DNA of 25,084 nt from Phycisphaeraceae bacterium (GTDB lineage Bacteria; Planctomycetota; Phycisphaerae; Phycisphaerales; Zrk34). The translations under genes and the position numbers were made by a program. The notes beneath the pieces were generated by a model, which saw nothing but the letters and a program-made list of their open reading frames with translations, had not been told where the DNA came from and made no database searches. Below, one piece after another: positions 12,510 to 17,628 of the stretch (position 1 is the first letter of the stretch; the number at the start of each line of letters is the position of its first letter). The stretch covers positions 1-25,084 of the forward strand of contig JANQHD010000012.1 of NCBI GenBank assembly GCA_028282805.1, written 5' to 3'.

Positions 12510-12555
12510 CGCCGGGAGGGGGATTTGAACCCCGAGGGTTTTCAACCCTGTGCCA
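12510..12555 (-). pseudogene. tRNA 3'-half fragment (anticodon arm GGG-TTGAAAA-CCC through T-arm GGGG-TTCAAAT-CCCC and the acceptor 3' strand), Phe-GAA-like
   Basis: The reverse complement reads TGGCACAGGGTTGAAAACCCTCGGGGTTCAAATCCCCCTCCCGGCG. The anticodon and T stem-loops and the acceptor 3' strand are present, but there is no 5' half or D-arm. It differs from the intact tRNA-Phe at 17072-17143. Confidence 0.45.
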
Positions 12556-12556
12556 T

Positions 12557-12634
12557 GGTGGATGTGGACCGGCTTCGAAACCGGCGACCTTCCGATTGAC
12601 CATCGGATGCTCTAACCAACTGAGCTACCACACA
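12557..12634 (-). pseudogene. Degenerate tRNA-Asp-like gene (anticodon GUC) with a genomically encoded ACCA tail
   Basis: The reverse complement is TGTGTGG-TA-GCTC-AGTTGGTTA-GAGC-A-TCCGA-TGGTCAA-TCGGA-AGGTC-GCCGG-TTTCGAAG-CCGGT-CCACATC-C-ACCA. The D-arm and anticodon stem are canonical. The defects are G33, an 8-nt T-loop and a 1-72 mismatch. A canonical tRNA-Asp exists at 16722-16795. Confidence 0.45.
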
Positions 12635-12740
12635 CCTATGCGCTTTTCGAATCCGTGACACGGAACACGCCTGACCCGATCGCGGGGCGAGGGCGACGCG
12701 CCGTCGGCGTACGCATGGTGTTGATCCCATATGAAGGAAA

Positions 12741-12812
12741 CACGCGCGGCAGGATTCGAACCCGCACCGGACGGTTTTGGAGACCGCCGCTCTACCGTTG
12801 AGCTACGCGCGT
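12741..12812 (-). tRNA. tRNA-Trp (anticodon CCA)
   Basis: Acceptor ACGCGCG/CGCGCGT with A1-U72, as in bacterial Trp. Anticodon arm GCGGT-CTCCAAA-ACCGT, T-loop TTCGAAT. Confidence 0.8.
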
Positions 12813-12820
12813 ATGTTGAA

Positions 12821-12892
12821 CTGCACCGGCTGGGGTCGAACCAGCAACCGTCTCCTTAACAGGGAGCCGCACTACCGTTGTGCTACGGTGCA
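12821..12892 (-). tRNA. tRNA-Asn (anticodon GUU)
   Basis: Acceptor TGCACCG/CGGTGCA, anticodon loop CTGTTAA, T-arm GCTGG-TTCGACC-CCAGC. It is 8 nt from tRNA-Trp. Confidence 0.75.
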
Positions 12893-12905
12893 AGTGTGAT
12901 GAAAG

Positions 12906-12978
12906 CCGCCCCGGTCGGGGTCGAACCGACACGCACCCGTTTAGAAGACGGGCGCTCTTCCGATTGAGCTACGGGGCG
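12906..12978 (-). tRNA. tRNA-Arg (anticodon UCU)
   Basis: Acceptor CGCCCCG/CGGGGCG, D-arm GCTC-AATCGGAA-GAGC, anticodon arm CCCGT-CTTCTAA-ACGGG, T-arm GTCGG-TTCGACC-CCGAC. Confidence 0.75.
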
Positions 12979-12980
12979 AG

Positions 12981-13041
12981 GGGGATGTGCGATCTTCAAT
13001 CTGCAATCTCCGATCTGTTCGATTGAAGATCGCACATCCCC
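12981..13041. repeat. Perfect 21-bp-stem palindrome (GGGGATGTGCGATCTTCAATC ... GATTGAAGATCGCACATCCCC), member of the inter-tRNA spacer repeat family
   Basis: The arms 12981-13001 and 13021-13041 are exact reverse complements around a 19-nt loop. The words GATGTGCGATC and ATCTCCGAT recur in the spacers at 16141-16182, 16269-16320 and 16497-16552. Confidence 0.8.
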
Positions 13042-13043
13042 AA

Positions 13044-13116
13044 TGACCCCGGTGGGGCTCGAACCCACACCCAACGGATTAAAAGTCCGCTGCTCTGCCG
13101 CTCGAGCTACGGGGTC
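13044..13116 (-). tRNA. tRNA-Lys (anticodon UUU)
   Basis: Acceptor GACCCCG/CGGGGTC, anticodon arm GCGGA-CTTTTAA-TCCGT, T-arm GTGGG-TTCGAGC-CCCAC. Confidence 0.8.
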
Positions 13117-13122
13117 ATGAAG

Positions 13123-13195
13123 TGGATCGGGTGGGCTTCGAACCCACACCTGACCGGGTAAGAGCCGGCCGTTCTGCCAGTTGAGCTACCGATCC
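13123..13195 (-). tRNA. tRNA-Lys (anticodon CUU)
   Basis: Acceptor GGATCGG/CCGATCC, anticodon arm GCCGG-CTCTTAC-CCGGT, T-arm GTGGG-TTCGAAG-CCCAC. It is 6 nt from Lys-UUU. Confidence 0.75.
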
Positions 13196-13235
13196 GATTG
13201 AAAACGATCCGTCGCGCTGTGAATACGACGGATCG
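13196..13235 (-). terminator. Rho-independent terminator downstream of rtcB (CGATCCGTCG...CGACGGATCG followed by TTTTCAATC on the minus strand)
   Basis: A 10-bp perfect stem (13205-13214 / 13226-13235) is followed by a T-run on the transcribed strand. The T-run abuts the tRNA-Lys-CUU 5' end. Confidence 0.55.
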
Positions 13236-13260
13236 GCAAGAGCCGAAGAACTTCCGGGGG

Positions 13261-16884: not shown

Positions 16885-16955
16885 TTGACCCGAGAGGATT
16901 CGAACCTCTGTCCACCGGTTATCAGCCGGTTGCTCGGCCGCTGAGCTACGGGTCA
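16885..16955 (-). tRNA. tRNA-Ile (anticodon GAU)
   Basis: Acceptor TGACCCG/CGGGTCA (U1-A72), anticodon arm ACCGG-CTGATAA-CCGGT, T-arm AGAGG-TTCGAAT-CCTCT. Confidence 0.7.
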
Positions 16956-16958
16956 GTA

Positions 16959-17010
16959 AAGACGACCGCCAGGCCCCGCCGCCCCATTGCGGCGGGGCCC
17001 AAGTCGTCTT
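16959..17010. repeat. Strong compound hairpin (AAGACGAC-CGCCA-GGCCCCGCC-loop-GGCGGGGCC-CAA-GTCGTCTT) 5' of tRNA-Ile
   Basis: Outer 8-bp stem 16959-16966 / 17003-17010 and inner 9-bp stem 16972-16980 / 16990-16998. Confidence 0.65.
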
Positions 17011-17020
17011 CTTGCATCCA

Positions 17021-17045
17021 TCCGTTCTTCACTTGTCAAAGACCG
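17021..17045 (-). promoter_or_regulatory. Copy 1 of the conserved 17-nt motif TTGACAAGT[G/A]AAGAACG (minus-strand sense); it contains TTGACA
   Basis: The minus-strand reading is cggtcTTTGACAAGTGAAGAACGga. A near-identical copy lies at 17451-17475. This copy is about 85 nt upstream of tRNA-Ile and might be a -35 element or a processing signal. Confidence 0.35.
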
Positions 17046-17071
17046 CTGCGCCGCGCGTGCGACGCGAACAA

Positions 17072-17143
17072 TGGCTGGTCCAGGAGTCGAACCTGGGTCT
17101 CCCGCTTTTCAGGCGGGCGCTTTACCGGCTGAGCCAACCAGCC
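17072..17143 (-). tRNA. tRNA-Phe (anticodon GAA)
   Basis: Acceptor GGCTGGT/ACCAGCC (perfect), anticodon arm CCCGC-CTGAAAA-GCGGG, T-arm CCAGG-TTCGACT-CCTGG, A73. The D-stem has one mismatch. Confidence 0.7.
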
Positions 17144-17153
17144 CTTGTGTCAA

Positions 17154-17226
17154 TCGCCGCGGTGGGAATCGAACCCACGCACACCCCCACGTGACGGGGG
17201 CGCTCTGGCCGCTGAGCTACGCGGCA
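17154..17226 (-). tRNA. tRNA-Val (anticodon CAC)
   Basis: Acceptor TGCCGCG/CGCGGCG, anticodon arm CCCCC-GTCACGT-GGGGG, T-arm GTGGG-TTCGATT-CCCAC. It is 10 nt from tRNA-Phe. Confidence 0.7.
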
Positions 17227-17303
17227 TAAGTTTGCGCACCGATCGCGCACCCGGTCGGTCGTCCGTCTGGCCTACGGATCAAAGCGCGTTCATAAGTTTT
17301 CAA

Positions 17304-17376
17304 TGGCGGCGGCAGGATTCGAACCTGCGGTCTTCGGGTCATGAACCCGACGAGGACTCCGCTCCTCTACGCCGCG
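17304..17376 (-). tRNA. Initiator-type tRNA-fMet (anticodon CAU) with a C1.C72 mismatch
   Basis: Acceptor CGCGGCG/CGCCGCC, so 1-72 is unpaired as in initiators. D-stem GAGG/CCTC gives A11:U24. Three G-C pairs close the anticodon stem (TCGGG-TTCATGA-CCCGA). T-loop TTCGAAT. Confidence 0.7.
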
Positions 17377-17382
17377 TCGCAA

Positions 17383-17454
17383 TCGCGATGGCTGGATTTG
17401 AACCAGCAACCTTTCCCGTATGAAGGGCCTGCTCTGCCGTTGAGCTACATCGCG
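17383..17454 (-). tRNA. tRNA-Met or Ile2 (anticodon CAU), elongator-type, weak anticodon stem
   Basis: Acceptor CGCGATG/CATCGCG (paired 1-72), D-arm GCTC-AACGGCA-GAGC, anticodon loop TTCATAC with only 3 G-C pairs in the stem (two G.A oppositions), T-arm GCTGG-TTCAAAT-CCAGC. It is 6 nt from fMet. Confidence 0.6.
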
Positions 17455-17475
17455 TTCTTTACTTGTCAATGGTCG
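17451..17475 (-). promoter_or_regulatory. Copy 2 of the 17-nt motif TTGACAAGT[G/A]AAGAACG, filling the spacer between tRNA-Val-GAC and tRNA-Met
   Basis: The minus-strand reading is cgaccaTTGACAAGTAAAGAACGcg. It is only about 10 nt upstream of the tRNA-Met 5' end, so it is unlikely to be a -35 for that tRNA. It is more likely a shared processing or recognition element. Confidence 0.35.
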
Positions 17476-17543
17476 CGGCTGGATTCGAACCAGCGACTTC
17501 CTGCGCGTCATGCAGGCGATCTACCGGGCTGATCTACGCGACC
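17470..17543 (-). tRNA. tRNA-Val (anticodon GAC)
   Basis: Acceptor GGTCGCG/CGCGACC, D-arm GATC-AGCCCGGTA-GATC, anticodon arm CCTGC-ATGACGC-GCAGG, T-arm GCTGG-TTCGAAT-CCAGC. Confidence 0.75.
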
Positions 17544-17556
17544 GTGTTTTTATCAA

Positions 17557-17628
17557 TGGCCTTGACGGGACTCGAACCCGCGGCTCCGCCTTGAAGGGGC
17601 GGCATGCTGCCAATTGCACCACAAGGCC
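17557..17628 (-). tRNA. tRNA-Glu (anticodon UUC), atypical C33; first tRNA of the array in the transcription direction
   Basis: Acceptor GGCCTTG/CAAGGCC, D-arm GTGC-AATTGGCA-GCAT, anticodon arm CCGCC-CCTTCAA-GGCGG with C33. T-arm GCGGG-TTCGAGT-CCCGT. Confidence 0.65.

Follow-up and report, generated by a model that had tools for sequence, protein, structure and literature searches.

Long accessory tRNA arrays have been found sporadically in several bacterial phyla, including the Planctomycetes. The so-called L-arrays consist of supernumerary tRNA genes in long, non-periodic, same-strand series, with a conserved HNH endonuclease gene adjacent to them and RtcB genes enriched nearby (Santamaria-Gomez et al., 2021; PMC8421152). 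Among the systems compared here, functional data were found only for Anabaena (Nostoc) sp. PCC 7120, in which the array, the trn operon of plasmid delta, is silent and is induced by ribosome-targeting antibiotics (PMC8421152). In this organism, 23 of the 26 array tRNAs are charged in vivo. Its TrcR regulon comprises the trn operon, the HNH gene all8564, rtcB, a slipin/SPFH gene and rimK (PMC10272220). The tRNA array unit, in turn, has been defined by at least 20 tRNA genes at a density of at least 2 per kb (Tran et al., 2016; PMC4758250). From Planctomycetes, degenerate clusters with as many as 28 tRNA genes have been reported, a duplicated pair among them (Kim et al., 2016; PMC4807772, S2 Text); the genomes in question possess a separate canonical Trp-tuf-Thr-Gly-Tyr-Thr cluster, and the arrays were treated as dispensable. 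Here we describe a tRNA array in a 25,084-nt stretch of DNA from a Phycisphaeraceae bacterium (GenBank assembly GCA_028282805.1, contig JANQHD010000012.1, positions 1 to 25,084), hereafter called the window. The locus fits the published L-array class and is a known kind of element in a planctomycete-type host. The explanation that we favour, with moderate confidence, is that the region is an accessory L-array operon, which would supply a reserve tRNA pool and an RNA-repair ligase from a single regulated promoter and leader, while its HNH nuclease would serve maintenance or spread.

Between positions 10413 and 17628, ARAGORN identified 30 tRNA genes, every one of them on the minus strand. The tRNA model of Rfam confirmed 28 of them at its gathering score and missed the His (15100-15173) and Ser-GCT (10675-10762) genes even at E up to 1; these two tRNAs are structurally aberrant. 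With 30 genes in 7,216 nt, four embedded protein genes counted in, the density is 4.2 tRNA genes per kb, and such a density over 7.2 kb cannot have arisen by chance. At 30 genes (28 by Rfam), the array lies above both thresholds of the tRNA array unit. TRF detected only spacer repeats of 7-15 nt and no period of tRNA length, in agreement with the non-periodicity of L-arrays, and the sole close pair of tRNA paralogs is Pro-CGG/Pro-AGG (83% identical). All 30 tRNA genes and four of the five protein genes lie on the minus strand behind one conserved promoter, and the module measures about 7.8 kb from this promoter through its last gene. The co-oriented protein genes encode an HNH endonuclease, an RtcB RNA ligase, an SPFH protein and a BldC/MerR-like helix-turn-helix (HTH) protein; the fifth is an opposite-strand open reading frame (ORF) of 131 aa. 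A first-pass annotation of this DNA had reported about 26 tRNAs in 5 kb, beginning at 12510. ARAGORN placed 25 of the 30 genes in 12510-17628, with the same anticodons and in identical order, and thus the dense array is real but larger than had been thought: the SPFH gene, previously taken as flank, is embedded in it, and five more tRNA genes lie at 10413-10945. The short spacings noted there were likewise recovered (His/Pro 2 nt, Met/fMet 6 nt, Lys/Lys 6 nt by the Rfam ends or 4 nt by the ARAGORN ends).

In the direction of transcription, the array opens with block 1 (15962-17628), whose 15 genes were recognized by ARAGORN, Rfam, their structures and ortholog covariation: Glu-TTC, Val-GAC, Met, an initiator-like Met, Val-CAC, Phe, Ile-GAT, Asp, Thr-TGT, Arg-ACG, Gln-TTG, Arg-CCG, a class-I Leu-CAG, Ala-TGC and Ala-GGC. 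The HNH gene (15322-15930) separates it from block 2 (15019-15248; ARAGORN, Rfam and structures), which comprises Pro-AGG, a non-canonical His and Pro-CGG. A single Gly-TCC gene (14533-14606; ARAGORN and Rfam) lies directly upstream of rtcB (13261-14493), beyond which block 3 (12740-13195; ARAGORN and Rfam) contains Lys-CTT, Lys-TTT, Arg-TCT, Asn and Trp. It is followed by a degenerate tRNA-like gene with an 8-nt T loop and G33 that adjoins a two-hairpin "tRNA 3'-half" element (12505-12635; ARAGORN and structure). After the SPFH gene (11008-12165), block 4 (10413-10945; ARAGORN, Rfam and structure) adds Gly-GCC, Cys, Ser-GCT, Tyr and Gln-CTG, and the HTH gene (10180-10386) is the last of the module. 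None of the 30 tRNA genes encodes CCA, and their trailers are U-rich.

In its general build, this array resembles the trn operon of Anabaena. Both are long, non-periodic, single-strand arrays of more than 20 tRNA genes with a homologous two-domain HNH gene next to or inside them, both mix canonical with aberrant tRNAs, and both contain class-I tRNAs with Leu anticodons. The likeness extends in part to the 3' ends, as most of the Anabaena array tRNAs also lack an encoded CCA, although two end in it. The tRNA order, however, is not shared, and the Anabaena operon is plasmid-borne, while the present array is chromosomal as far as the 25-kb contig shows. Control also differs: in Anabaena, the ribbon-helix-helix repressor TrcR acts on -10 repeats, whereas here a BldC/MerR-type HTH gene stands at the 3' end and a leader with a small ORF at the 5' end. 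Finally, the RtcB and SPFH genes lie elsewhere in the Anabaena genome but inside the array here. The HNH, RtcB and SPFH genes are thus packed together in the window while their counterparts in Anabaena are scattered yet co-regulated, and this physical linkage provides independent context evidence that spare tRNAs, tRNA repair and their partners work together.

The clusters described by Kim et al. (2016) are alike in belonging to the same phylum and in having up to 28 tRNAs, reduced covariance scores, fast turnover, broken synteny and copies duplicated within one genome. They differ in that Ile-TAT, highlighted there, is absent from the window. The conserved RtcB-HNH-SPFH-HTH module, the common promoter and leader and the compensatory evolution described below are features that the surveys of Kim et al. 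(2016) and Tran et al. (2016) do not describe. A Mycobacterium intracellulare plasmid likewise has a homologous HNH gene within an array of 28 tRNAs, which include class-I Leu tRNAs. In that array, some tRNAs encode CCA (e.g., Leu-TAG) and the tRNA order differs, and no RtcB or SPFH gene was present in the 16-kb stretch examined.

The RtcB protein (410 aa; Pfam PF01139, E = 3.7e-66, 224.6 bits) was used to locate related arrays among one-genome-per-species contigs from many phyla. Of 585 RtcB relatives, only the five closest (L003 to L007, 78-86% identical; metagenome-assembled genomes, MAGs, of Planctomycetota and Phycisphaeraceae) carry the same array, in the order Met-Met-Val-Phe-Ile-Asp-Thr-Arg-Gln-Arg-Leu(CAG)-Leu(TAA)-Leu(CAA)-Leu(GAG)-Ala-Ala, HNH, Pro-His-Pro-Gly, RtcB, Lys-Lys-Thr-Arg-Asn-Trp-X, SPFH and Gly-Cys-Ser-Tyr-Gln. 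The adjacency of Gly-TCC and RtcB is kept in all five. The seventh array, that of L167 (a metagenome contig of 978 kb), contains the tRNAs, the HNH gene (77-80% identical), the leader and the HTH gene. Judged by these comparisons, the array belongs to a lineage common to several Planctomycetota/Phycisphaerae-type genomes. The tRNA content varies within this lineage: the window has lost Leu-TAA, Leu-CAA and Leu-GAG, which the relatives carry, and Ile-TAT is present in L004. L006 and L007 are two diverged copies of the array in one MAG.

The flanks are unrelated in all seven arrays, with nothing in common outside the module. Those of the relatives encode a sulfatase, an aldolase, a sigma-54 activator, VWA, rhomboid and radical-SAM proteins, a GH3 enzyme and a histidine kinase, and a large serine recombinase and an rve transposase lie beside the L003 array, as does an rve transposase beside that of L004. 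Such differing neighbourhoods fit mobility or relocation of the module. No orthologous array-less site was found among the contigs of FecR homologs, in which the closest usable relative was only 50% identical and is probably a paralog. In two Logan contigs, L224 and L225 (SRR20820733 and SRR20820739, the former of which also holds the RtcB contig of the window), a PEP-CTERM sulfatase gene follows an ECF sigma-FecR pair of 50% identity; the tRNA array of the window occupies the position downstream of FecR where L224 and L225 have the sulfatase.

Canonical cloverleaves with the identity elements in place were seen in about two thirds of the array tRNAs. G3:U70 is present in both Ala tRNAs, the initiator-like Met has the C1xC72 mismatch and a GGG/CCC anticodon stem, and the Pro tRNAs have C1:G72 and A73. 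The remainder show various departures. Gly-GCC has A8 and C33, Arg-ACG has A8, the Met at 17383 has an anticodon stem of 3 bp, and Ser-GCT has an aberrant T arm consisting of a 4-bp stem with the loop ATCGTGC. The His tRNA combines A8 with a Ser-like D arm and lacks G-1, and Pro-AGG, whose counterpart in the relatives reads TGG, has G8 and A34.

Selection on these RNAs was assessed by comparing each window tRNA with its orthologs in the six related arrays. In total, 1956 stem pairs were unchanged, 136 had changed on one side yet remained paired, 189 had undergone compensatory changes and 79 were broken, so that 325 of the 404 changed pairs are still paired. Several tRNAs have no broken pair, among them the class-I Leu-CAG (100 unchanged, 6 one-sided, 14 compensatory and 0 broken pairs across six orthologs), and even the odd His tRNA has nine compensatory changes against one broken pair. 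By the evidence of these alignments, the array tRNAs are functional RNAs under structural selection rather than pseudogene debris.

This result bears on the idea that the array is selfish, decaying DNA without benefit to the cell, composed mostly of tRNA pseudogenes and kept through homing or copying by its HNH nuclease. Degenerate members do occur (the Asp-like gene, the half-tRNA, Ser-GCT and Pro-AGG with A34), palindromes and heptad repeats occur only in the spacers of the array, the HNH protein is the most constant protein of the module, and such clusters have been called "degenerate" and "cryptic" in publications (PMC8421152, PMC4807772). The stem pairs preserved through change, the tRNAs free of broken pairs, the retained aminoacylation identity elements and the covariation that accompanies the conserved odd His and class-I Leu tRNAs all speak against it, as do the intact catalytic motifs of RtcB, the conserved promoter, leader structure and regulator gene and the charging of most array tRNAs in Anabaena. 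We therefore consider this explanation very unlikely.

Some of the aberrant features recur in the relatives. The Ser-like D arm and A8 of the His tRNA are found in all the arrays compared for it (L003, L005, L006, L007 and L167), while a G-1 is encoded in L003, L006 and L167, and the window, L005 and L007 have T at this position. Anticodons with A34, unusual for bacteria, are seen in the Pro-AGG of the window (15176-15248), in Thr-AGT genes of L003 (6267), L006 (2605) and L007 (7336) and in a His-ATG gene of L003 (11039). The composite of a degenerate tRNA-like gene and a "half tRNA" occupies the same array position in the window (12505-12635, minus strand), L003 (11030-11180), L004 (11910-12060) and L005 (12075-12240). 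Its anticodon loops differ between the genomes (GTC, ATG, "GA" and GAA), and in L004 the first hairpin carries a GAAA tetraloop and the stems show compensatory changes. The first-pass annotation had listed this composite as a degenerate Asp-like gene and a Phe 3'-half fragment; the degenerate structure is confirmed, but with homologous composites in three relatives it is not fresh debris.

The class-I tRNA with the Leu anticodon CAG (16183-16256, minus strand) is 74 nt long and has a short variable arm, A73 and a Leu-type D arm with a 3-bp stem and an 11-nt loop, as supported by its structure and six orthologs. Class-I tRNAs with Leu anticodons were found in every array compared, i.e., the seven planctomycete arrays, the Anabaena trn operon, the Mycobacterium plasmid, the Terriglobia array and the array of phage Tunturi_5, and A73 and the Leu-type D arm are common to them. 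Since the leucyl-tRNA synthetase of Streptomyces coelicolor charges both type I and type II tRNALeu (PMC6614811), leucylation is the likely fate of these tRNAs by analogy. Class-I Leu tRNAs, present in arrays of four phyla (Cyanobacteria, Actinobacteria, Acidobacteria and Planctomycetota) and one phage, may mark this class of elements.

Although all 20 amino acid classes are represented, decoding by the array is incomplete. There is no decoder for the UCN Ser codons, and CAG is the only Leu anticodon, which leaves five of the six Leu codons (UUR, CUY and CUA) unread. In this respect, the array is not "self-contained", as had been proposed at first; together with the non-canonical His, Gly-GCC and Ser-GCT tRNAs, these gaps indicate that it is accessory. 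The same data weigh on the view that the array is an old, essential and vertically inherited main tRNA operon, with RtcB and the other genes hitch-hiking. Such a housekeeping cluster would fit the gene order kept in seven arrays at an RtcB identity of 78-97%, a composition indistinguishable from that of the host, the strong purifying and compensatory evolution of the stems and the complete set of amino acid classes. It would not be expected to leave these Ser and Leu codons unread, or to rely on a His tRNA without G-1, a Gly-GCC with C33, a Ser-GCT with an aberrant T arm and two tRNAs that fail the Rfam model. Nor does it agree with a different neighbourhood in each genome, two copies in one MAG and the varying tRNAs and cargo (three Leu tRNAs lost in the window, RtcB and SPFH absent from L167), or with the separate canonical cluster of the published planctomycete genomes, in which such arrays were regarded as dispensable. 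Had the relatives carried the same array at the same locus with identical composition, an old vertical cluster would have been indicated; the gene order is indeed kept, but locus, cargo and tRNA content differ. We give this alternative little weight, about as little as the selfish one.

The four co-oriented proteins were examined individually. In an alignment to the RtcB of Pyrococcus horikoshii (PDB 4dwr/1uc2), the motifs D/C (GYDIACG), GSGNH, HFGSRGLGH, HHN and HGAGR are all kept, so that the metal-binding and His-GMP catalytic motifs of the ligase are intact. Its scores lie under the NCBIfam equivalog cut-offs, pointing to a distinct RtcB subfamily, and its identity to every genomic or viral homolog other than L003-L007 is at most 71%. 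The HNH protein (202 aa, Pfam HNH_5/HNH_4, phrog_16726; Shine-Dalgarno sequence AAAGGAGG) is 67-77% identical among the seven arrays. With all8564 of Anabaena it shares 30% identity over 165 aa, covering both domains (BLASTP, E = 7e-23), the kind of HNH neighbour that is typical of L-arrays. Homologs are located inside the 28-tRNA array of the M. intracellulare plasmid and the 37-tRNA array of the jumbo phage Tunturi_5, and another precedes an array of 19 tRNAs on a Calothrix plasmid. By homology, the protein is a member of a tRNA-array-associated, homing-type nuclease family. Both proteins had been recognized at first reading, and the Pfam matches and aligned RtcB motifs bear this out. The proposal of a dedicated tRNA module is likewise supported, in the form of an accessory array with an intact RNA-repair ligase and a homing-type nuclease.

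The SPFH/Band-7 protein (385 aa, Pfam PF01145, E about 1e-31) starts at the ATG at 12165 behind an AAGGAG Shine-Dalgarno sequence, is 63-73% identical in L003-L005 and keeps its position in the array. The last gene encodes a MerR-type HTH protein of 68 aa (Pfam MerR, E = 1e-13), with a PADLOC match to mad1 and with homologs that close the arrays of L004, L005 and L167 at their 3' ends. As it reaches only 41.5 bits against the cut-off of 77 for NCBIfam BldC, it is better described as BldC-like than as a member of the BldC family, while its MerR HTH domain is clear from the profile match.

A further conserved part of the module lies upstream of the first tRNA gene. An alignment of the seven arrays revealed a sigma-70-like promoter (17961-17989, minus strand) with the -35 element TTGCAT, a 17-nt spacer and the -10 element TATATT within the invariant sequence GCCGATATnTT. 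The arrangement TTGCA-N-GCCGATATnTT is aligned in all seven arrays, and the motif occurs only once in the window. This GCCGATAT promoter matches the consensus in 8 of 12 positions and for this reason was not listed by a generic promoter scan.

The promoter is followed by a structured 5' leader RNA (17851-17937, minus strand), for which RNAalifold predicted three helices from the seven sequences. P1 is a hairpin at 17925-17937 that sequesters a GAGG Shine-Dalgarno sequence and stands directly before an AUG, P2 is a 10-bp helix of 17898-17907 with 17851-17860, and P3, enclosed by P2, is a hairpin of 17873-17878 with 17862-17867. In the consensus, 96.4% of the cells are paired and eight pairs show compensatory changes. 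None of 500 shuffled controls matched the observed value, and slid controls paired at 31-42%. The minimum-energy fold of the window sequence contains the same helices (z = -2.2). A covariance model built from the leader found one match per array, these being its seven training copies, and none elsewhere in about 2 Mb of loci. A search of 17629-18150 against Rfam 15 with E up to 1 gave no match, T-box elements, riboswitches and leaders included, and a pattern scan of 2.9 million viral contigs for the leader motif was likewise negative.

A small leader ORF of 73 codons (17692-17913, minus strand) starts just past P1 and spans P2 and P3. It is 65-79 codons long, from an aligned ATG to an aligned stop, in the six of the seven arrays in which it was translated (L167 by eye), and the untranslated L006 leader has its ATG and stop in the same alignment columns. 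The middle of the ORF is indel-rich and unconserved, and its product matched no family. We infer that the leader ORF is translated; as its ends are kept but its middle is not, the alignment suggests that its translation matters more than the peptide. What is new in these arrays is thus a single conserved promoter followed by a three-helix leader that overlaps a small ORF, present in all seven and outside Rfam. Together with the 3'-terminal BldC-like HTH gene, this leader is the likely control point of the operon. More speculatively, the leader might be a new cis-acting sensor of translation status, with ribosome progress or stalling on the leader ORF gating the reserve tRNAs and the RNA ligase; we hold this to be a long shot, but if true it would be the first known case of a tRNA operon gated by a riboregulator. 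In any case, the promoter, the structured leader and the small regulator gene offer starting points for experiments on the activation of such arrays, and both this leader and the close clustering of RtcB, HNH and SPFH with the tRNA genes make the locus worth following up.

The module had been taken at first to be of foreign origin, and composition was examined as an indicator of a recent import. The GC content of the array (0.638) is close to that of its flanks (0.639 and 0.655), and the GC content at third codon positions (GC3) of the RtcB, HNH, SPFH and HTH genes (0.88-0.93) equals or exceeds that of the flanking genes (0.85-0.91). In the six other genomes, the GC content of the module follows that of the host flanks (0.55 vs. 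0.55-0.58 in L167, 0.63 vs. 0.62 in L005). GC content, GC skew and GC3 thus gave no island signature, and foreignness by composition was rejected. Integrase, excisionase and phage structural genes are absent from the window, which therefore does not have the attributes of a prophage or an integrative element, and a direct-repeat search for attachment repeats at the borders found only similarity between tRNAs. PADLOC returned only generic HNH and HTH matches, with no assignment to defence or anti-defence.

These data have to be set against the explanation that the array is a phage-derived counter-defence island, i.e., a recently imported prophage or satellite remnant or cargo, whose tRNAs and RtcB would counter anticodon nucleases. 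Phage tRNAs are documented to evade tRNA-targeting defences (PMC10264068, PMC11555353), and the T4-type homing nuclease SegB amplifies tRNA loci (PMC13096335). Like the present locus, phage tRNA islands are dense arrays in which a homing-type nuclease gene lies among the tRNA genes and an RNA ligase is encoded as well. In place of RtcB and HNH, T4 itself encodes Pnkp/Rnl1 and the GIY-YIG nuclease SegB. Members of the RtcB subfamily are common among phages, with 649 phage records and 205 viral contigs, and the Tunturiibacter phage Tunturi_5 carries, in its 37-tRNA array, an RtcB of 59.6% identity and a homologous HNH gene within 4 kb; the two are 3 kb apart, and a RimK-like gene and a CCA-adding enzyme adjoin this RtcB. 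In line with the phage-like placement of an HNH gene among tRNAs, pointed out in the first-pass annotation, the HNH and RtcB families recur in Tunturi_5, the M. intracellulare and Calothrix plasmids and the trn operon on pCC7120delta. The recombinase and transposase genes beside the L003 and L004 arrays would also suit this view, as would the RtcB of a Terriglobia array, L080, which is 88% identical to that of the viral contig L128.

At this locus, however, the expected traces are missing. No phage structural, replication or integrase gene is found in the window or within 6-10 kb of the L004, L005, L007 and L167 arrays, whose flanks are ordinary metabolic and regulatory genes. The composition is host-like, with the module tracking its host in GC content, the PADLOC output contains nothing beyond generic matches, and the Planctomycetota RtcBs form a clade of their own (78-97% internal identity) apart from all viral homologs (at most 67% identical for those on viral contigs and at most 71% overall). 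The leader scan of 2.9 million viral contigs was also negative, and a viral origin of this lineage thus found no support. Phage counter-defence is a plausible remote origin of such modules but is unsupported here, and as an account of this locus we rate it improbable, though less so than the selfish and housekeeping alternatives. From the host-like GC and GC3 and the absence of integrase, phage genes and border repeats, we conclude that the module has long been resident in this genome group, in which it relocates, duplicates and gains or loses cargo, and is not a recent import. Differing flanks, two arrays with an adjacent transposase or recombinase and two copies in one MAG speak for a sporadic distribution with horizontal spread, while the host-matching composition and the fact that all named carriers are Planctomycetota or Phycisphaeraceae MAGs speak against it. 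The Terriglobia MAG array L080 (37 tRNAs) and the IMG/VR contig L128 (32 tRNAs), with their closely related RtcBs, present a different picture; judged from this identity, and in contrast to the planctomycete lineage, the acidobacterial array is probably carried by a phage.

For the accessory L-array operon that we favour, the following course of events is proposed. The conserved promoter would drive a transcript that opens with the structured leader RNA and the small leader ORF and continues across the 30 CCA-less tRNA genes and the HNH, RtcB, SPFH and BldC-like HTH genes. Given the lack of an encoded CCA and the U-rich trailers, the tRNAs would be excised by RNase P and RNase Z and receive their CCA from the host enzyme, and the same processing would free the mRNAs. 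The products would be a reserve or replacement tRNA pool and a ligase that reseals tRNAs or rRNA cut by ribotoxins, by which translation could be kept going or restarted under stress from antibiotics, toxin RNases or tRNA-targeting immunity. The HNH nuclease would probably maintain, duplicate or spread the array through homing or gene conversion, and the leader and the BldC-like protein would probably keep the operon off for as long as translation runs normally. Both the induction by stress and the physiological role are proposed by analogy with Anabaena PCC 7120.

Several observations weigh against this proposal. The generic scan found no other promoters in the window, but it also missed the conserved one. 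Terminator-like hairpins after HNH, after RtcB and before SPFH may divide the region into several transcription units. RtcB and SPFH are absent from L167 and are therefore optional cargo rather than obligatory parts. The link between RtcB and an SPFH/slipin protein, which are co-regulated in Anabaena and embedded in the array here, involves a putative orthology of the SPFH gene to alr0740. Finally, that other tRNA genes must exist in the genome is a deduction from the anticodon set of the array within the 25,084-bp contig, not a count.

The terminators proposed at first reading are present as terminator-like hairpins. The one after HNH (15256-15295, minus strand) is a GC-rich hairpin with a T-run, detected by the terminator scan and as inverted repeat I7, while the one after rtcB (13206-13234, minus strand) consists of the arms GATCCGTCG and CGACGGATC followed by GTTTT and was read from the sequence, as it falls under the T-run threshold of the scan. 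Two more such hairpins lie at 12188-12261 (minus strand) between the last tRNA-like element and the start of the SPFH gene, which for this reason may be a separate transcription unit.

Palindromes made of short repeats are found in the spacers at 12981-13041, 16139-16182, 16263-16334 and 10577-10670. An inverted-repeat search identified the first, in block 3, as a perfect palindrome of 21 bp, and the last, in block 4, was recognized by the same search and by TRF as a palindrome of heptad repeats. The repeat units are the core GATGTGCGATC and the heptads AGTCTTG/CTCAAGA and GATGTCC. Eight of the nine matches to the core GATGTGCGATC lie inside the array, vs. 0.6 expected by chance. As they are absent from the matching short spacers of the relatives, these palindromes look like lineage-specific insertions of small palindromic elements.

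The 131-aa ORF (14642-15037, plus strand), of unknown function, had been considered an ORFan, but about 20 homologs with 36-48% identity were found. It is absent from L003-L006, inverted in L007 and has a GC3 of 0.69 compared with 0.85-0.93 in its neighbours; it is therefore a later passenger and not a core part of the module. Its AlphaFold2 model is confident (pLDDT 89) and gave no fold match in the PDB. The homologs occur in non-array contexts, with translation-factor neighbours in two of the three distinct contexts examined: an ABC-F ATPase gene immediately precedes the homolog in L221-L223, which are three near-identical contigs, and efp, epmA-like and epmB-like genes adjoin the one in L220. 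This gene context hints at a translation-related role of the family.

The window flanks consist of ordinary planctomycete-style genes. On one side lie two GH2 glycosidases, an unknown protein of 690 aa and a 214-aa ORF (9461-10105, plus strand), which by eye resembles a KDPG aldolase, and on the other side a FecR protein, an ECF sigma factor and a PEP-CTERM protein. An 887-aa ORF at 22019-24682 (minus strand) is a wrong frame, given its GC content of 0.96 at first and 0.60 at third codon positions, and the real genes are probably those on the plus strand at 22009-23004 and 23545-24495.

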